A stretch of DNA of 64,000 nucleotides, taken from the NCBI GenBank assembly GCA_036382515.1, contig DASVHQ010000009.1, positions 28,260 through 92,259 of the forward strand, read 5' to 3'. Of this stretch, positions 45,090-56,170 are shown one piece after another (within the stretch, counting starts at the first letter, position 1; the number at the start of each line of letters is the position of its first letter). Made by a program: the position numbers and the translations under genes. The notes under the pieces are model-generated. The model made no database searches and was not told the DNA's origin. It saw nothing but the letters and a program-made list of their open reading frames with translations. The DNA comes from Polyangiales bacterium (GTDB lineage Bacteria > Myxococcota_A > Polyangia > Polyangiales > JAFGIB01).

Positions 45090-47768
<2,679 letters not shown>

Positions 47769-47937
47769 GTCACGGGTCCTTGTCGCCATGTGTTGGCTTG
47801 TTGCAGAACGCTGATTTTCCGGGGATTCTAGAGGGTCTGTGGCGGAAGTTCATAGCAACACACTTCAACGAAACCCGACACCGTGCTACCTAGGAACTGC
47901 CTGGAAGCCTCTAGGTAGCAAGTCTTGGGAGGTGTGT

Positions 47938-49140
47938 GTGGCACAGGTGAAGCTCACCAAAAGGGTCGTCGAAGCCGCGAAACCCGAGACGGCGGAATAC
48001 ACCCTCTGGGACGCCGAGATCAAAGGCTTCGGACTCAAGGTCACACCCACCGGCAAGAAGAACTACTTGCTCTACTACCGAGCCACCGATGGGACGCAGC
48101 GCAAGCCCAAGATCGGCGGCCACGGAGCGCTCACCGTTGACCAGGCGCGCGCCATCGCCCGCAGCATGCTGGCGGCTGTCGCTGCCGGGGCCGACCCTTC
48201 CGCAGCCAGACAAGCGGCGCGGACGGCCCCTACCGTCGCCGACTTGTGCACGATCTTCGAGGTCGAACACGTCGGCAAGAAGAAGGGCGGGACGTCGAGC
48301 CAATACAAGACGATCCTCAAGAACTACATCCGGCCGGCGCTCGGGTCACGCAAGGTTGGGAGCATCACGCGCGATGACATGGCGCAACTCGTGAGCAAGA
48401 TCGGCAAGGAGAAGCCGGTCGCCGCGAACCGCACGAAGGCCGTGGCGTCGGTGATGTTCAAGCTGGCCGAGCGCTGGGGACTGCGACCGCTTGGCTCGAA
48501 CCCTTGCCAGCACATCGATCGGTTCAAGGAGAAGAAGCTGCACCGCGACCTGAGCGAGCTAGAACTCGCGCGCCTCGCCTCGGTGCTGAGCGACGCAGAA
48601 GCCGAGCCGGAACCCGGCCGAGCCAACGTGAGCGAGAAGCCGGACGTGGTGGCGGCCATCCGCTTGATCATGTTCACCGGTTGTCGCCGCAACGAAGTGG
48701 CGAACCTGCGTTGGGACGAAGTGGACCTTGAGCGCGGCCTGCTGCGCCTGCGTGACTCCAAGACCGGCCCCAAGACGATCCAGACCAACCGAGCCGCGCT
48801 CGACATCATCGAGGCGCAGGAGCGCCCGGTCGGCGCCGTGTACGTGTTCCCCGAAGCAAAGAAGCCGGGCCGGCTCAATCGCTCTTGGGAGCGCATCCGC
48901 ACGCGCGCGCAGCTCGGCGACATGCGCTTGCACGACCTGCGGCACAACTTCGCCAGCGCGGCCGCCGGTAGTGGCGCGTCCCTGGTGATGATCGGCAAGC
49001 TCTTGGGCCACGGCAGCTCGGCGACAACGGAGCGTTATGCGCAGCTCCGAGACGATCCCGCCAAGCAGGCATCCGAAGCCGCTGGCGCTGCGATCTCCGC
49101 TGCGATGGCAAAGAAGCCGGGGCTGTCGGTGGTCAAGTGA
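47938..49140 (+). CDS. tyrosine-type site-specific integrase (P4-like, DUF4102-type N-domain)
   Basis: GGGAGG RBS, then GTG 47938. KLTKRVVEAAKP...LWDAEIKGFGLKVTPTGKK N-domain. Catalytic TGCRRNEV, HDLRHNFAS, GHGSSATTERY. Confidence 0.85.
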   Translation: MAQVKLTKRVVEAAKPETAEYTLWDAEIKGFGLKVTPTGKKNYLLYYRATDGTQRKPKIGGHGALTVDQARAIARSMLAAVAAGADPSAARQAARTAPTVADLCTIFEVEHVGKKKGGTSSQYKTILKNYIRPALGSRKVGSITRDDMAQLVSKIGKEKPVAANRTKAVASVMFKLAERWGLRPLGSNPCQHIDRFKEKKLHRDLSELELARLASVLSDAEAEPEPGRANVSEKPDVVAAIRLIMFTGCRRNEVANLRWDEVDLERGLLRLRDSKTGPKTIQTNRAALDIIEAQERPVGAVYVFPEAKKPGRLNRSWERIRTRAQLGDMRLHDLRHNFASAAAGSGASLVMIGKLLGHGSSATTERYAQLRDDPAKQASEAAGAAISAAMAKKPGLSVVK

Positions 49141-49856
49141 CGCAGCGTGGACGGCCGCGCAAGCTGACGCGCGAGCAAGCGCGTAAGACCGCGGAGCGTG
49201 TCTTCACGCAGTGGGAAGCGTTGCCAGAACGGACCAAGGAAATGGACGGCATTTTGCGCCGTCGCCAAGTCCTGATCGAGTACAAGCTCCCCTCTGATGA
49301 TCCGTTCTTCGGGCTTGACCGGCTGCACGCGATCGTTGCCGCGACGGCGCGGAGCAAACGGCCTGATTGGGGCCAAGCGCTTGACCAGTGGCTCACGCCC
49401 AATCGCGAAACGAGCACGCAATGGGCAATCGAAACGCTCGCGGCACTGCTCAAGCAATACGATCCGCGGAAGCGAGACGCGAAGATCAGGCAGCTGTGCG
49501 CCGCCGCCGCAGCGCCCGGCGCCGAGCACATCGACCACGCCTACCAGGTGGCGCTCGATGCTTGCTGGGGCGCGCTCAAACGCAGCGTGGATGAGGGGCA
49601 CGAACCGGCGATCGGACAGGCCGCTTTCGCGGCGCGTTTCCGTGGCCTGCTGGTAGACCACACAGCCAGGCGTGTCGTGCATGACGAACGCCGGAGTCGA
49701 CCGAGCGCCATCGCGCGCACTGTGGTCGCTGCGCTGATCACGCGCAGCACGCCAGAGGCAGTGCGCAAGCGCCAGAAGCGCTCGCCGACGTCGCTTCCGC
49801 CGTTGAACGGATTCGACCGCAAGTGGGTGGTGGTGGGGACAAAGCCGAGCGGCTGA
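49137..49856 (+). CDS. island hypothetical protein
   Basis: GTG overlaps the integrase stop (GTGA). 239 aa. No recognised motif. Confidence 0.4.
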   Translation: MTQRGRPRKLTREQARKTAERVFTQWEALPERTKEMDGILRRRQVLIEYKLPSDDPFFGLDRLHAIVAATARSKRPDWGQALDQWLTPNRETSTQWAIETLAALLKQYDPRKRDAKIRQLCAAAAAPGAEHIDHAYQVALDACWGALKRSVDEGHEPAIGQAAFAARFRGLLVDHTARRVVHDERRSRPSAIARTVVAALITRSTPEAVRKRQKRSPTSLPPLNGFDRKWVVVGTKPSG

Positions 49857-49902
49857 TTTTTGCGTCCGTGTTAGCGTTTTGCGCCCTGCTACACCGTGAT
49901 GC

Positions 49903-50142
49903 ATGGACATCACACCGATGCAGGCATACGCGCCGGACCGGAACCGCACTGTCACGCTGGAGGTGGCAATAGCTGCGCCCTGTGAGGTGCGCACCGTCGC
50001 CCGCGTGCTGAGGGGCGAGCGGGTACGTGGGCACGTCGACGCGCGGATTCGCTGTGGACTTGCGGCTCGCGGTATCGTCGTGCCGCCGTCAGCGGCCCCC
50101 GACCTCGGCTCGACCATGCTCGACCTGAGGGCGAGCCGATGA
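49903..50142 (+). CDS. small island protein (79 aa)
   Basis: First gene of an ATGA-coupled chain. No recognised family. Confidence 0.35.
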   Translation: MDITPMQAYAPDRNRTVTLEVAIAAPCEVRTVARVLRGERVRGHVDARIRCGLAARGIVVPPSAAPDLGSTMLDLRASR

Positions 50143-50381
50143 GCGCGCGCCAGACAGCTGCACCGGCTGCTGACCGCTGGGTCTCGGCCGCCATCGCCGC
50201 GGAGATCTCCGGATTCTCCGAATCCCACCTTGCGCGCCTGCGCATGCAAGGCGCCGGGCCGCGCTACGCGAAGCTCGGTACCGGCAAGCAGGCACACGTG
50301 CGCTACCGCGAGAGCGAGCTACACGCGTGGATGGCGTCGCACCTCGTGGCGAACACCTCCGAGGTGGCGCCGTGTGGATGA
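50139..50381 (+). CDS. AlpA/excisionase-like HTH DNA-binding protein
   Basis: WVSAAIAAEISGFSESHLARLRMQGAGPRYAKLGTGKQAHVRYRESELHAWM matches the AlpA/MerR-type Xis pattern. ATGA overlaps on both sides. Confidence 0.65.
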   Translation: MSARQTAAPAADRWVSAAIAAEISGFSESHLARLRMQGAGPRYAKLGTGKQAHVRYRESELHAWMASHLVANTSEVAPCG

Positions 50382-50581
50382 TCGTCACCCTGCCCGCGGC
50401 TGGCAGGTGCGCGCTGTGCTCGCGCATCCTGGTGGCCGGATCAATCGGCTGCCGCTCTGACGCTGGCGAGCACGCACACTCGGCCTGCGCCATCGGCGAC
50501 GCCAGACGGCGCGCTGGTGAGCGTGTGCAGCTGACACCTGCGCCGCTGCCGCCCGTCGAGCGCCGGAGGGCCAGCGCATGA
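50378..50581 (+). CDS. small putative zinc-ribbon protein (67 aa)
   Basis: ATG 50378 overlaps the alpA-like stop and its own stop overlaps the next start (ATGA). CALC...C...HAHSAC spacing. Confidence 0.4.
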   Translation: MIVTLPAAGRCALCSRILVAGSIGCRSDAGEHAHSACAIGDARRRAGERVQLTPAPLPPVERRRASA

Positions 50582-52467
50582 CCTCGCGACTCCGGGTTGT
50601 GCGTGATGTTGCCGCCGACCTGCAAAGCGCTCTGACGGCCGCGGGCGTCTACGAGCTGACGGACCTGTCGACCGCCGTGCAGCGCGACGGCTGCGCCATG
50701 CGCTTGGCGCTTGCGCTGGGCACCATGGATCCAATCGCGCGCGAGACACTTCGCGCCGAAGCGATCCAGACTTTCGCCGAGAGGAAGCTCAAGCGCGGCG
50801 CTAAGTTCGTGGACGGCGCGATCGCCGAAGCCAAGCGGCTGGCGCGCGATTACGCGACGGCGCCGGAGCCGCCTGTGTCACCCGCTGACGCTCGGCCGGA
50901 GATCACCATCGGCGAGTTGCACAAGACAACGGACGCGGCGATCGCCGCGCTCGCCAAGCTGGACGTATACCAGCGCGCCGGGAAGCTTGTGGACGTCATC
51001 CGCGAGGCCCAGACGCAAGACGACGGCGCCGTGGTTCCCGCGGACGTGCCGCGTATCCGGCGGATGCCAAGCGCGCGCCTGAACGAGTGCCTTCACCAGG
51101 CCGCGCGCTGGTAATCGGTCAAGCACGACCGGGACGGAAACGAGTTTCGCAAGCGCGTGTCGGTCCCGGATGATGTGCTTGATGCGATCGCGGCCCGCGG
51201 AGAGTGGGCGCACGTTCGCCCGCTCGAAGGCGTCGTTGCGTGGCCGGTTCTGCGTCCCGATGGCTCGACCTTGAGCACCCCGGGATACGACAAGGCTACG
51301 CGCCTGATCAGCAGCAACGTCGTCAACGCGAGTGTTTCCGACGCGCCGAAGATGGTCGACGTCCAGCAAGCGCTGGCGTTGTTGTACGAGGTGGCGCGGG
51401 ACTTTCCTTTCGCGAGCGACGCGTGTTTGTCCGCTTGGTATGCGCTCCTGCTCACGGTCCCGGCGCGTCACGCAATCAGCGAGCCGGTCCCGCTGGGCCT
51501 CATCGATGGCAACGCGCGCGCGGTCGGGAAGGGTCTGCTCGTGGATCTCATCGGCGAGATCGACATGGGCTTCTCCCTGGCGCGCCGTGCGGTCCCGCAC
51601 GACACCGCCGAGTGGCACAAGTCGATGTTGTCGATCGCGATGGCGGCCGAGCCGGTCGTGCTCTTCGACAACGTGACCCGCACGCTGCGCTCGGAAGTAC
51701 TCGACGCCGTGTTGACCGGGACATCGTTTCAGGGCCGCGCACTCGGAACCAACGAGGAGCCGATGCTCGCCATGCGCACACTCTTCCTGGCGACCTCCAA
51801 CAACGCCACCGTGTCCACCGACCTCGTGCGCCGATCGCTGCATGTGCGACTCGAGACGCGCGACGAACATCCGGAGCAGCGCAGCAACTTCCGCCACCCG
51901 GACCTGCGCGCGTACGTTCGTGCAAATCGTGCGGCGCTACTGTCGGCTGCGCTCACGGTGCTGCGTGGGTACATCGTCGCAGGTCGCCCGGCTGTCGAGC
52001 TTGTGCCGATGGGCAGCTTTGAAGAGTGGTCGGCGCTCGTGCGTGGCGCGCTCGTGTGGGCTGGAATGCCGGACCCCGGGCGCACGCAGGACAGCCTGCG
52101 CGAGATGGGCGACCCGGAGCGGGATGCGCTGTCGGAGCTGCTGACCGCGTGGCGCGCGCACTTCGGTGGGCGGTTTGTCGCAAGCGCGGAAGTGCTCGCC
52201 GCAATCGATCGTGACGCCGCCGTGCTTACTCTTCGGCAGGCCGTCATGACCGCATGCCGCACAGACGGCAAGCCGCCCGACGCCCGTCGGCTCGGCAACA
52301 TCCTGCGCGGCCTTCGCAGCCAGATCGCTGACGGCCTCGTGCTCGAAGCGGGCTCGAAAGGTGAGCGGGGCATGCCGTGGCGTGTTCGTGACACTCGCTT
52401 GTCGGCGGACTCTGCTGACTCCGCTGACTCTGAGAACCGTTCCCCCGCGGGAGAGCTATTTCAGTAA
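50578..52467 (+). pseudogene. phage/plasmid primase-associated SF3 (P4/D5-type) replication NTPase, interrupted by an in-frame TAA
   Basis: ORFs 50578..51114 and 51157..52467 are in the same frame, separated by TAA at 51112-51114. The stop falls inside a conserved-looking stretch (...HQAARW*SVKHDRDGNEF..VSVPDDVLDAIAARGEWAHVRPLEGVVAWPVLRPDGSTLSTPGYD). Walker A-like GNARAVGKGLL and Walker B VVLFDNV. Confidence 0.6.
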
Positions 52468-52510
52468 CAAGATAATGGAAACTACAGTCAGCACAGTCAG
52501 CGGAGTCAGG
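52406..52510. repeat. iteron-like 9-mers forming an inverted repeat around the replication-gene stop
   Basis: gcggactct gctgactcc gctgactct at 52406-52432, and acagtcagc acagtcagc ggagtcagg at 52484-52510. CTGACTCCGCTGACT is present once on each strand (a 15-nt perfect inverted match). Confidence 0.6.
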
Positions 52511-52760
52511 AGTGGGACGCGGGGAAGCTGGACGCGCGGCACCCACGCAGTTGCGCCCGACGCAGGTGGCAGGCTCGCCGCTGTCAGCTGCCCGCCTGCG
52601 GGCGACAGGGAGCTGCAACCGGGCATGTGGGCCTGCGCTGGCCGAGATCAAGCCGGGGGTTAACAGGTTTTGGCGAAAAATGGCCGTACGCCCATCACAG
52701 TGAACTCCGGAAATCCCGCGCAAGAAAAGTCGGCGTACACCCCAATCTGAGCCAGACACG

Positions 52761-53033
52761 ATGACGAGAATTTCCCACAAAAAGAAGGATCCGAAGCGCA
52801 CTGCGTACACCGCTCCGGAGGTGTACGCAGTCCCGGCTGACAGACCGTTGGCGGCGGACACTCGAGCGGACAGCGCCGCGGACAGCGCGACGCCGGCACA
52901 CACGCCAGCGTTCGATCGGGCGATGGGTGACCGCATCGTGCGCGCGCTCGAGTCGCAATCGGAAGCGCAGCGGCAGCAGGTGCAAGAGCTGCGAGCGCTC
53001 CGGGAGGCGGTACGCGACGCCGGTAGGCGATGA
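52761..53033 (+). CDS. small island protein (90 aa), C-terminal coiled-coil-like
   Basis: The ORF has an ATGA overlap to the next gene. No family recognised. Confidence 0.3.
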   Translation: MTRISHKKKDPKRTAYTAPEVYAVPADRPLAADTRADSAADSATPAHTPAFDRAMGDRIVRALESQSEAQRQQVQELRALREAVRDAGRR

Positions 53034-53290
53034 GCGCAGCCGCACGCTTGGCGCTGCTCGCGGTGCTGCAGCGCACAACGGCGCGCGAGGTGGCGCTTCG
53101 CTGCCGCGTGACACGTAGCTGCGTGAGCTCGTGGGGCAGCGGCAAGTCCGTGCCCTCGCCGCGCGCACAGGTCGCGCTGTCCGACATCTACGGGATTGAT
53201 CCGCGCGGCTGGCTGCCGAAATCGCCGTACCGGGCCAAGTTCGGCACCGCTACTGCTTGCGCTTCGCTGCGATCGCCGCTCGTGCCTTGA
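53030..53290 (+). CDS. putative HTH (Cro/CI-like) DNA-binding protein
   Basis: TAREVALRCRVTRSCVSSWGSGKSVPS resembles the XRE-type helix-turn-helix plus the 'W..G...P' tail. Confidence 0.4.
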   Translation: MSAAARLALLAVLQRTTAREVALRCRVTRSCVSSWGSGKSVPSPRAQVALSDIYGIDPRGWLPKSPYRAKFGTATACASLRSPLVP

Positions 53291-53885
53291 CACAAGATGG
53301 CCGTTCGTCGCCGTAGCACAGCAGCTCGATCCGAAAAGCGGTACGGGCGAGCGCACCTTGTTCGGGCTCGACCAGTGACATGCGCTCGGCGGCATCGAGC
53401 GCCGCGCACGCATCGTCATCGTTCGCTCGGTCCTGGTACGCGCGCAAAACGGGCTCAGCTTGACCGTCACTCACGATCTCGGCCGTGAGCCTCTTGGGGC
53501 GACCGACCCTTGTGTCGCAGACGAAGCTGTTGGGATCGTCGAGCTTGCGGATCGCTATCTCCAGCTCCGACAAGAATCGGCAGTGCACACCAAACCATTC
53601 AGCCGCGTTCGCTGCAGCTTTGTACGCCTGCTGCGCTGCGTCGAATGCCGCGAGCGCCTGCCTCGCGTCGGCGAGTCGATCCGGAAACGACGCTCGACAC
53701 TGATCAGCAAGCTCCGCAGCGCGCGCGGCGACAAACGCGGTCCGGCGGTGCTCCTGCACAGTGCGAATCCGGGAGAACTCCGCTTCGGCTTTCTGATCGA
53801 ACGTGCTGCGCGCGCGCGGCGCGTCGTCAGCGAATGCTGTTGGCACAACCACGGCGAACACGAAGAGCAGGACGGCGTTGCGCAT
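53250..53885 (-). CDS. secreted island protein
   Basis: Signal peptide MRNAVLLFVFAVVVPTAFA. 211 aa, helical, with four Cys. No family recognised. Confidence 0.45.
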   Translation of the reverse strand: MRNAVLLFVFAVVVPTAFADDAPRARSTFDQKAEAEFSRIRTVQEHRRTAFVAARAAELADQCRASFPDRLADARQALAAFDAAQQAYKAAANAAEWFGVHCRFLSELEIAIRKLDDPNSFVCDTRVGRPKRLTAEIVSDGQAEPVLRAYQDRANDDDACAALDAAERMSLVEPEQGALARTAFRIELLCYGDERPSCVKARAAIAAKRKQ

Positions 53886-54204
53886 GTGATCTCCCCACGT
53901 GATCGAGTCGAGACACCAGGCATACCAGAGGCGGGAGACGCGCTAACTGCGCCCAGCCTCTCAGCGTCCGAGTGTCACCCGCCGCGCCTGCCCTTCCCTC
54001 GCGTTGGGTGATCCAATGCGCGTGGCGTGCGGCTTCGCCGATGCGCCGAGGCTCAGCCGGAATCGGCCGCACGCCGCCGGCCGGGCTGTCCTGGCTGGCG
54101 GCCGTGCGAGCGCGGCGATAGCTTGGGTGTTTCACCTTCGCCCAGGAGCACAAGCCGATGCGGGTGCGTGACGCGGCCGGCGTTGGACCGCGCCCTGATC
54201 GCAG

Positions 54205-54603
54205 CTACCCAAGTGCGACAGGATCACCACCCATGGCTCGGGCGATGTGCTCGACCAGCGCGCCCCTTGTCATCGATCCATCCGCGACGGCAACCATGAT
54301 CTCGACCCACTCCGCGCTGAGCGTGACGTCGTAGCCGTTCGCCGCCAGGAACTTGAGCATCACGAGTGTGGCTGTGCGCTTGTTGCCGTCCTGGTAGCCG
54401 TGATTCTTCGCGAGGCCGTGCGCGTAGACCGCGGCCAGCTCGGCGAGGCTTGTGTAGTACCCGGCGCGCGGCGCCATGGTCGCCGACTCGATCAAGCCGC
54501 GAGTCAGCACGGCGGCCGACCCGCCGCCAAGCGCGAGCGCGGCATCGTGCGCCGCGTCCACGTCCTCCACTTCCAGGAAAACGACGTCGTCGAACGCAAG
54601 CAA
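54205..54603 (-). CDS. doc: Doc (death-on-curing) Fic-fold toxin
   Basis: Fic/Doc motif HGLAKNHGYQDGNKRTA. 132 aa. Confidence 0.85.
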   Translation of the reverse strand: MLAFDDVVFLEVEDVDAAHDAALALGGGSAAVLTRGLIESATMAPRAGYYTSLAELAAVYAHGLAKNHGYQDGNKRTATLVMLKFLAANGYDVTLSAEWVEIMVAVADGSMTRGALVEHIARAMGGDPVALG

Positions 54604-54607
54604 GGCG

Positions 54608-54769
54608 TTACCGCTTGGCCAGCTCGGTCAGCACTTTGCGATTGGCTTCGTTCGCGAGCACACGGCGCTGCGCTTCGTCGAGCGCGCGCTTTTGTCGCAC
54701 GCGCTTGTCCGCCTGCGTTTCCGCAGGAGCGTCGCGTGTGAGCGCCGGAGCTGTCGAAGCTTTCGCCAT
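54608..54769 (-). CDS. putative antitoxin for Doc (53 aa)
   Basis: Trimmed to MAKASTAPAL. Lies 4 nt upstream of doc. Small and charged (KRVRQKRALDEAQRRVLANE). Called by position only. Confidence 0.5.
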   Translation of the reverse strand: MAKASTAPALTRDAPAETQADKRVRQKRALDEAQRRVLANEANRKVLTELAKR

Positions 54770-55124
54770 GGGGTCAGCATGCCACAGGCTGCATTCCAAA
54801 GCACCCCGGCGACCGCTGCTGCTGACGGCGGCATGCGTGGCGCGCCGCCGACGACCCGTGGTCGCTTCGTGGCGTTGCTACCTATGCGTTACCTGGAGAT
54901 CACACCGATTTGCCAAGCACGCGCAATCACAGCGCAAATCGCCGAAACTCACATGATACTTGGTCATGAAGCGTCGAAAGTGGGGGCCCGTGCTGGGGGC
55001 TTGTTGAGACGCAATACAACGCTCGTTGACGCGAAACGCAGCGTTTCGGCCCGGTTTCTACGCGAGCGAGCCAGGACATACGTCCCGGCGCGGGCCGCGC
55101 AACACGCGCGACCCCTTGGGCAGA

Positions 55125-55979
55125 TCACTCGGGGATCTGCTTCAACTTCATCTGCACGTCGCTCGACCAGTGGTTCTTGAACGCGCGAACACAGGTGTCG
55201 AGGTAGCGCTCGTAGTCTTGATAGACCTGATCGCCCCACTGCTTGCGGATCGCCGGCTCATGCTCACGCATGCGGCGCAGCCACTCGCCCGTGGTCTTGC
55301 CGTAGCTCTCGCGCTGAGTGCGCAGTTCGACCACTTCCCAGTACGGGTTGACGGCCGCGACCAGTTCTTCCAGCCGCGGATTGAGGCCGCCCGGAAAGAT
55401 CACGTCGGCCGTGAACGCGAAGTCTTCGATGTCCTTGCGATTGCGCGGCATGCGGTTGCGCAAGATCGCCTGAAAGCCAAAGCTCGCGCCGGGCTTCACC
55501 CAGCCGTGCAGCTTCCGGAAGTAGTTGCGATAGAGCTCGATGGCCTTGCCCTCGCGCGCCTGTGCGGGCGAGCAGAGGTGGTCGATCATCTCGATCGACT
55601 GCAGCGCGTCGTACTTCTCGGCGGGCTCGTAGTCTTTGTAGTCGATGACCTTGACCCACACGCCCGGCAGCTTGCGCGCGTGGATCTCCTCGGACTGCGC
55701 CGTGGAGAGCGTGATGCCGTGGATGCGCTTGACGCCCTGCGACACCAGGTACTCCACGTTCGCGCCCCACCCGCAACCGATGTCGAGCACCAGTTTGTCG
55801 GGCGTGATCTCCGCGTAGTCGTGGAGGATCTTGCACTTGTTGATCTGTGCCTCTTCGAGTGACTCAGAGCTCTCGAGGTAGCTCGCACTGGTGTAGTGCA
55901 TCCGGTCATCCAGCCAGAGCCGGAAGAACTCGTTGGAGACGTCGTAGGAAACTTCGATTTCGCGCTGGGTCGAGGTCAT
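55125..55979 (-). CDS. cyclopropane-fatty-acyl-phospholipid synthase-family SAM methyltransferase
   Basis: Trimmed to MTSTQREIEVSYDVSNEFFRLWLDDRMHYTSA (CMAS N-motif HYD.SN.FY..wLD..M.YS). VLDIGCGWG motif I. Confidence 0.8.
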   Translation of the reverse strand: MTSTQREIEVSYDVSNEFFRLWLDDRMHYTSASYLESSESLEEAQINKCKILHDYAEITPDKLVLDIGCGWGANVEYLVSQGVKRIHGITLSTAQSEEIHARKLPGVWVKVIDYKDYEPAEKYDALQSIEMIDHLCSPAQAREGKAIELYRNYFRKLHGWVKPGASFGFQAILRNRMPRNRKDIEDFAFTADVIFPGGLNPRLEELVAAVNPYWEVVELRTQRESYGKTTGEWLRRMREHEPAIRKQWGDQVYQDYERYLDTCVRAFKNHWSSDVQMKLKQIPE

Positions 55980-56095
55980 GGCGAGCGGGAGAATGACAAG
56001 AAAAAGGCCCGTGTTCCAGGGGGAAACGTAGGCCAATCTGGACAACGCGAAAGGGAAGCGCTACACGACTGCGCCCACTCCTAGAGGGGGTTGTT

Positions 56096-56170
56096 GGTGC
56101 CGTAGCCAAGCGGTTAGGCAATGGTTTGCAAAACCATCACACACCGGTTCGAATCCGGTCGGCACCTCCA
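56096..56170 (+). tRNA. tRNA-Cys (anticodon GCA), CCA encoded
   Basis: Hand-folded. 7-bp acceptor stem GGTGCCG/CGGCACC. Anticodon stem ATGGT/ACCAT with loop TTGCAAA. T-arm ACCGG-TTCGAAT-CCGGT. Discriminator T followed by CCA. Confidence 0.9.

Follow-up and report, generated by a model that had tools for sequence, protein, structure and literature searches.

What is the small integrase-bearing insertion that separates the aconitase gene acnA from a CMAS-type methyltransferase gene in a myxobacterial genome, and how might it have spread? The window analysed here is a stretch of 64,000 nucleotides from a Polyangiales metagenome-assembled genome (MAG; assembly GCA_036382515.1, contig DASVHQ010000009.1, positions 28,260 to 92,259 of the forward strand), in which the original prediction had placed a satellite of the P4 or phage-inducible chromosomal island (PICI) type at 47884 to 54898. 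We find that the locus is, with near certainty, a bounded integrative element inserted by site-specific recombination at the start of acnA. The reading that we favour, with slightly better than even confidence, combines such a site-specific integrative element with a backbone as in minimal phage satellites or 'hitcher' elements, a transfer that would depend on a helper, and a present copy whose replication gene (rep) is defective. The satellite-type lifestyle, taken by itself, is evenly balanced in our judgement, and it is unlikely that the element is functional at present.

Boundaries and target site of the element

The insertion, its integrase and its target comprise the following features, in window coordinates:

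45090..47768, minus strand: acnA (aconitase), the target gene; Pfam Aconitase at 1.4e-169, relatives aligning from residue 1 (MTKYL)
47756..47769: attL core GATACTTGGTCATG, from the repeat search and shuffles; the 7-nt TACTTGG, then TCATG
47770..47937: P' arm, with putative arm-type sites GCTACCTAGG (47885-47894) and an inverted copy (47910-47919)
47938..49140, plus strand: P4-family tyrosine integrase (Int) of 400 amino acids; Pfam Arm-DNA-bind_3, Phage_int_M and Phage_integrase; phrog_1 at 7.7e-59
54877..54897: P arm, with two putative arm-type sites, GCTACCTATG and GTTACCTGGA, of motif GYTACCTRKR
54955..54968: attR core GATACTTGGTCATG, with CAT directly before it, jointly CATGA-TACTTGG-TCATG
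55125..56045, minus strand: CMAS-type methyltransferase, the right-hand flank, which adjoins acnA in empty-site genomes

The perfect 14-bp direct repeat formed by the two cores is the best direct repeat of the region, and 300 shuffles of the two end regions never produced a shared word of that length (the longest was 12 bp). Comparison with relatives lacking the element, which the original prediction had proposed as the way to define attB, places acnA and CMAS side by side in G005, G003 and G002, three genomes of the same genus, where 92-153 nt, with no sign of the element, separate the CMAS stop from the acnA start. The 14-mer is present in G005, unchanged and as a single copy, and G003 and G002 differ from it at two positions. 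Given the repeat at both ends and these empty sites, the insertion comprises positions 47770-54954, which together with one core copy would give a 7,199-bp circle on excision. Both junctions recur at 100% identity in independent Logan contigs from the sequencing run SRR10489814; a 21-mer from the attB side had no exact match in metagenome contigs.

It could be argued that there is no mobile element and that these are simply core genes of the lineage, a view with which their GC content, close to that of the flanks, would agree. The three empty sites refute this explanation, to which we give practically no credence, and the direct repeats and arm-type sites also speak against it, as does the patchy distribution of the Rep family (45 of 301 genomes of the order, and none of the three same-genus empty-site genomes). 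The claim of a compact mobile element with an integrase, an AlpA-type regulator and a superfamily 3 (SF3) helicase is borne out by this absence and patchiness, and related elements lie at other sites, in tRNA genes, of other genomes.

The ends originally proposed, 47884 and 54898, fall on internal arm-type repeats and had to be moved outwards to the 14-bp repeat. The repeat 47884-47905 / 54876-54897 was rejected as the att core because it lies inside the 14-bp core repeat and is kept upstream of related integrase genes, equally far from the core. Of the five matches to the motif GYTACCTRKR in the window, four lie at the element ends (47885 and 47910 as an inverted pair, 54877 and 54888), against 0.21 expected; we read them as arm-type integrase sites. 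That the element does not sit in a tRNA gene proved correct. The tRNA-Cys at 56096-56170 (plus strand) is the sole tRNA in the window, Rfam returning no other match, and it follows CMAS, together with a sulfatase gene, in all three element-free genomes. It is therefore not the att site, and its 3' end faces away from the element.

The integrase gene has a GGGAGG Shine-Dalgarno sequence 5 nt upstream, and both HDLRH and the region of the catalytic Tyr can be read in its translation. Upstream of int, the sequence can be aligned with that of three loci in other genomes, L155, L156 and L157, whose integrases are 51-58% identical, and in these alignments tandem GCTACCTAGG-N-GCTACCTGGA sites stand about 115 nt from the core. 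In all three, the core position falls where a partial tRNA copy ends, at the anticodon stem-loop; the L157 element is 10.7 kb long and bounded by a 49-bp tRNA-Phe repeat. Direct reading of the L155 sequence gives a core of CATGA-CTGCCAG-TCATG, apparently the anticodon arm of tRNA-Ala(GGC). The reconstructed attP core of the present element, CATGA-TACTTGG-TCATG, has the same stem-like form, with inverted half-sites of 5 bp on either side of a 7-bp overlap, and its counterpart at acnA is GAGA-TACTTGG-TCATG. The half-sites CATGA and TCATG are identical in the element and L155, and the 7-nt centre differs. The element resembles the integrases that target tRNA anticodon loops (L155, L156, L157 and also L043) in integrase sequence (51-58% identity), in its P' arm and arm-type sites, which are homologous, and in the stem of its core, but its overlap TACTTGG corresponds to the start region of acnA instead of to an anticodon loop; it therefore lands on a protein-coding start. 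We infer that the lineage of this element retargeted an anticodon-loop attP to the start of acnA through a changed overlap sequence.

On integration, a P4-family integrase recombined this attP core with the first codons of acnA. The acnA reading frame remains whole, with its ATG within the attL core (as CAT of the left copy, on the minus strand). The leader of acnA would then be the P' arm of the element, which carries a Shine-Dalgarno-like AAGGA now upstream of acnA. Rightward of 47769 the DNA can be matched to the P' arm of L155 (at 25 of 43 positions, by our own count), and for this reason we take it to be element DNA, including the AAGGA 9 nt upstream of the acnA ATG. For the same reason, a crossover further right, at the common 9-mer GGCTTGTTG, is disfavoured.

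Two further observations concern the flanks. An in-frame ATG at 47787-47789, created by the P' arm, precedes the conserved acnA start by 21 nt, so that the mechanically called open reading frame (ORF) has 899 amino acids versus 892 from the conserved start; this upstream ATG has no Shine-Dalgarno sequence. Between attR and CMAS, a perfect palindrome, CGAAACGC-A-GCGTTTCG, occupies 55020-55037. We take the DNA around it to be the displaced native upstream region of acnA; the palindrome itself could be an operator or a small terminator.

The interrupted replication gene and its neighbours

ORF calling was guided by GC content at third codon positions, and family scans used Pfam, NCBIfam and PHROGs, the last on ten ORFs of the element; a sigma-70 promoter scan gave no match. 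Family scans, fold and translations together recover the gene set originally listed, namely the integrase, an AlpA-like regulator, a Cys-rich small ORF, a nucleoside triphosphatase (NTPase), a secreted-type ORF and a Doc pair. From the integrase to the putative origin, the genes and sites are:

49137..49856, plus strand: orf239, an orphan whose start overlaps the int stop (49138-49140) by 4 nt, GTGA
49903..50142, plus strand: orf79, first gene of the overlapping operon (ORF calling)
50139..50381, plus strand: AlpA/Xis-type HTH_17 protein, 28.4 bits (cut-off 27); phrog_66, excisionase/regulator
50378..50581, plus strand: orf67, a Cys/His-rich small protein; ATGA overlaps with both neighbours, no family match
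50578..51114, plus strand: N-terminal fragment of rep (orf178); the N-terminal domain of single-chain homologues aligns with its residues 103-178
51157..52467, plus strand: helicase fragment of rep, 436 amino acids, predicted D5-like SF3 fold; same frame as 50578-51114
52402..52512: putative origin, with three GCTGACT iterons in the rep 3' end, an AT-rich spacer and three inverted AGTCAGC iterons

The genes orf79, AlpA/Xis, orf67 and rep form a four-gene chain with ATGA overlaps, which is a translationally coupled operon. The AlpA/Xis protein is 50-53% identical to the products of genes beside related integrases. No homologues of orf239 were found; genes of 217-258 amino acids stand in the syntenic place after int in L155-L158. 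The zinc ribbon that had been predicted within the chain of small genes corresponds to orf67, which is indeed rich in Cys but matches no family.

An in-frame TAA at 51112-51114 splits rep. Homologues of Rep, of which there are more than 100, are encoded by one ORF of 520-650 amino acids and align with residues 103-178 of orf178 and with the 436-residue ORF as one continuous protein. The TAA recurs in contigs from SRR10489814 and from SRR30681616 (the latter contig being 99.95% identical), and since a contig from a second run contains it, the stop is real and persistent and not an assembly error. The present copy is probably replication-defective, because the stop divides the gene. Two Rep homologues of the same order carry an in-frame TGA (G227:C8:171059-172336 and G079:C513:1476-2726), and interrupted rep genes may be recurrent in the family.

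The 436-residue ORF has no match in Pfam or NCBIfam, including D5_N, primase, DUF3987 and DUF5906. In PHROGs, its matches lie in the C-terminal halves of phrog_29234, phrog_10537 and phrog_19930, which are families of long primases/polymerases. A profile search of PDB sequences with Rep was likewise without a match, and the fold search alone succeeded. The AlphaFold2 model (predicted local distance difference test score, pLDDT, 91.7) has as its top Foldseek matches the PrimPol of African swine fever virus (ASFV), the C-terminal region of NrS-1, the SaPI5 primase-helicase (7ola), PriRep1 and E5 of monkeypox virus (MPXV). Foldseek gave a probability of 1.0 to ASFV PrimPol, NrS-1, SaPI5 and MPXV E5, with TM-scores of 0.35-0.52. 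Walker A GK (G124, K125) and Walker B DN (D171, N172) are invariant or nearly so across 45 homologues. On the strength of the model, Rep is predicted to adopt a D5-like SF3 helicase fold. The primase-associated SF3 NTPase of the original prediction stands as to the helicase, which is the C-terminal 436 residues of a TAA-split gene; the element has no primase domain. Relatives do carry one, fused to Rep in L043 (zinc ribbon plus Toprim) and adjacent in L076 (Prim-Pol).

The three GCTGACT repeats at the end of rep encode the SADSADS tail of the protein, and the spacer that follows them is the most AT-rich 30-mer of the scanned region around the rep 3' end. Iteron-like arrays also occur at the rep 3' ends of L029, L031, L104, L144 and L147. 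By analogy with Staphylococcus aureus pathogenicity islands (SaPIs), the region 52402-52512 looks like an origin. The parallel with the SaPI replication module lies in the fold match to the SaPI5 Rep helicase (7ola) and in iterons that flank an AT-rich region at the rep 3' end. The two differ in that sequence identity is about 11-13%, that half of the element's iterons lie inside coding sequence, and that the N-terminal domain is not the same. The acidic DSADS-type tail is kept in homologues that are only 40-57% identical, and it coincides with the iterons (52402-52432; alignment columns ~720-735); constraint on the origin at the DNA level may preserve the peptide.

To the right of the origin, the element carries a few small genes and its cargo:

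52761..53033, plus strand: orf90, no family match
53030..53290, plus strand: small helix-turn-helix (HTH) protein, possibly Cro/CI-like; HTH_31 at 23.7 bits (cut-off 27), and HTH_3 below its cut-off
53250..53885, minus strand: orf211, with a signal-peptide-like N-terminus (translation); no family match
54205..54603, minus strand: Doc/Fic toxin; Fic at 1.2e-9, TIGR01550 at 49.1 bits (cut-off 38.65)
54608..54799, minus strand: small charged Doc partner of 53-63 amino acids, putative antitoxin (position and translation)

The ORF that had been called a Cro/CI-like regulator is present, but both HTH matches stay below the Pfam cut-offs. From its N-terminus, orf211 looks like a secreted protein. The Doc motif HGYQDGNKR is intact, with Tyr for the Phe of HxFxD(A/G)NKR. 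Its partner matches neither Phd nor any other antitoxin family, and PADLOC, run on the element, recovered only the Fic domain. Both cargo genes (orf211 and Doc) were found in the second sequencing run.

Relatives and the case for a satellite

How does this element relate to phages, satellites and plasmids? The relatives of its Rep or integrase include a series of small units:

L043, 9.3 kb, tRNA-Ala repeat: HK97-type major capsid; integrase in the related anticodon-loop-targeting group
L049, 12.6 kb, 82-bp direct repeat, partly tRNA-Lys: TerS
L076, 11.5 kb, tRNA-Arg repeat: Prim-Pol, GHKL-Toprim, PLD
L104, 11 kb, tRNA-Arg repeat: no notable genes noted
L112, 9.9 kb, tRNA-Asn repeat: HTH_17
L144, 10.7 kb, tRNA-Asp repeat: int, HTH_17, Rep
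L147, 8.7 kb, tRNA-Pro repeat: no notable genes noted
L157, 10.7 kb, 49-bp tRNA-Phe repeat: related integrase, different replicase
L175 (IMGVR_UViG_3300048848_000085), 10,625 bp, 127-bp terminal repeat: MerR-like regulator, Rep, TerS, major head protein, portal, head-tail adaptor
L180 (IMGVR_UViG_3300010349_000817), 8,445 bp, 90-bp terminal repeat: primase-Rep fusion, major head protein

The direct terminal repeats of L175 and L180 suggest that these are complete circular units. Since small bounded units share the Rep, the backbone recurs in satellite-sized units, some of them with gene sets like those of capsid-forming PICIs (cfPICIs).

Two of these relatives show features of their own. In L157 (GCA_031409455.1, JANNXG010000656.1), the tRNA-Phe repeat occurs a third time, at 1101, and there bounds a second island of about 7 kb (L157:1101-8228), in tandem with the 10.7-kb element; its genes (AAA_13/SMC_N, HNH_2 and DUF1016/YhcG) are defence-like in look. 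The cargo of L076 (L076:8336-10708 and L076:13342-14319) includes a 790-residue protein that joins a GHKL-ATPase to a Toprim of TopoVI-A/Spo11 type, and a PLD-family nuclease; these are possible defence genes.

The same family also leads in another direction, and several points weigh against the satellite reading. The closest Rep homologues (55-57% identity) adjoin Baseplate_J or tape-measure genes, and many relatives sit in IMG/VR contigs of 30-62 kb; the backbone of the element is therefore also that of full temperate phages. Rep is broken by a stop codon. Genes that redirect capsids, recognise cos or pac sites or derepress a helper were not recognised in the element, nor was TerS, and the MAG, which is 89.5% complete, contains no HK97-type capsid or TerL_ATPase gene as the sign of a helper prophage. 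The intergenic DNA of relatives is too divergent for an alignment to tell independently the native side of the core from the element side. The value of the locus is limited in turn, as the rep of this copy is broken.

Some of these points would suit a remnant of a full-size temperate phage, whose late region was lost by internal deletion and whose early arm (int, xis, rep and regulator) and attR-side morons (the secreted protein and the Doc pair) were left between intact att sites. Besides the tail-gene neighbours and the large viral contigs, the split and pseudogene-like rep would fit such a history. So would the convergent ORFs 53030-53290 and 53250-53885, whose 41-nt overlap is a possible deletion junction, and a ClpP/S49-like gene about 9 kb downstream of the closest integrase, in L155. 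The element itself, however, shows no detectable fragment of a structural gene by Pfam or PHROGs, which agrees with the original statement that structural phage genes are absent, and its genes stand close together, joined by ATGA overlaps. The Rep or integrase backbone is shared by at least ten other units of 8-13 kb with bounding or terminal repeats, so that small size is a recurring natural state. We consider a phage remnant unlikely.

Among described satellites, the P4-like, PICI and cfPICI classes share with the element an Arm-DNA-bind_3 P4-family integrase, an AlpA-type regulator, a D5-like SF3 helicase (here by predicted fold) and accessory cargo at the distal end, and distant relatives with the same Rep (L175, L043, L049 and L180) carry cfPICI-like head and packaging gene sets. 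Unlike in P4, the helicase has no primase domain, its D5-like SF3 fold being encoded by a TAA-split gene. The P4 markers Psu, Sid, Delta and epsilon/Ash were absent (PHROGs on ten ORFs, Pfam on all ORFs), and so, by Pfam and PHROGs, were the PICI markers Ppi/Cpm, TerS and Rpp and the cfPICI capsid, portal, protease and adaptor genes; the same search tools did detect head or packaging genes in L043, L049, L175 and L180. The assignment to a P4- or PICI-type satellite is partly supported, by the backbone and by the same-Rep relatives with capsid, portal or TerS genes; P4 or PICI hijack genes are missing and rep is interrupted, so that a satellite lifestyle is no more than plausible.

The PICMIs (phage-inducible chromosomal minimalist islands) of Vibrionaceae offer a closer parallel in architecture. 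Their order is int, iolg, alpA, up1, prim, up2, they have no capsid-remodelling genes, and iolg overlaps int by 4 nt and is required for excision (PMC10803314). The element similarly runs from int through a gene overlapping it by 4 nt to alpA, a small gene, the replication gene and a few unknown or cargo genes. It is very small, has no capsid-remodelling or packaging genes, and is inserted beside or in a protein-coding gene and not a tRNA. The likeness of orf239 to iolg lies in architecture only, no homology being detected. Where PICMIs are recognised by int, alpA (PF05930/PF12728) and a primase, the element has int and PF12728 and no primase. Its replicase is a helicase-only SF3 protein without DUF3987 or DUF5906, so that any resemblance is at the level of the predicted fold. 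PICMIs are inserted downstream of fis in Vibrionaceae, whereas the target here is the acnA start in a myxobacterial MAG; rep is broken and no helper was identified. The neighbours of the closest integrases likewise keep to the PICMI order (int, a gene of about 230 amino acids that overlaps or adjoins it, a small gene, HTH_17, a small gene and a replicase), with a replicase that varies between DEAD plus DnaB, DnaB-like, and Prim-Pol plus D5_N/DUF5906. SatelliteFinder places loci with only int, AlpA and a replicase in 'type C PICI', a class that is ambiguous among satellites, defective elements and other mobile elements (PMC10085698), and the element scores at most as such.

It is also conceivable that the locus is an integrative, plasmid-like cargo island, similar to a tycheposon, which excises and replicates autonomously and spreads by vesicles, transformation or mobilisation without a helper phage. 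The Rep domain does occur in small plasmids of Methylobacterium, Psychrobacter and Streptomyces, and the lack of hijack genes and a cargo consisting of a toxin-antitoxin pair would be in keeping with such an island. On the other hand, no relaxase, oriT or coupling protein was found by the Pfam, PHROGs and NCBIfam scans, and capsid, portal or TerS genes occur in relatives that have the same Rep. We regard a plasmid-like island as improbable.

A possible life cycle and its significance

For the favoured reading, a helper-dependent integrative element with a satellite-like backbone, the following cycle can be proposed. After integration at acnA, excision would require Int, acting on arm-type sites at both ends, and AlpA/Xis, perhaps aided by orf239 in the manner of the PICMI iolg. 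Replication would be driven by the SF3 Rep helicase on the iterons that flank the AT-rich spacer at the rep 3' end, and since the element has no primase domain, priming would fall to the host or the helper. Horizontal transfer would likewise require a helper phage, because the element has neither packaging nor conjugation genes. At present, the rep-defective copy would be retained as a chromosomal island, with the Doc pair favouring retention and the TAA stable in the population.

A more far-reaching interpretation, which we put forward tentatively and consider doubtful, would make the element a minimal and recently inactivated representative of a phage-satellite family, not yet described, that spans Myxococcota, Planctomycetota and Acidobacteriota. 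Such a family would be defined by a Pfam-less SF3 Rep with iterons in its own 3' coding end and would range from PICMI-like to capsid-forming members; in the present member, attP would have been retargeted from a tRNA anticodon loop to the start codon of acnA, supplying its ribosome-binding site. A literature search found no paper that combines 'phage satellite' and 'Myxococcota', and the SatelliteFinder paper (PMC10085698) does not mention the phylum.

The locus provides a precisely bounded example with empty-site controls. It ties a Pfam-less Rep family to a series of 8-13-kb elements, some of them with capsid, portal or TerS genes. Its attachment site suggests that an element whose att core resembles a tRNA anticodon arm in shape can switch to the 5' end of a protein-coding gene as its target and still leave that gene intact. 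If the reading as an undescribed satellite family is true, iterons embedded in the rep coding sequence would explain the conserved DSADS tail of its Rep proteins.

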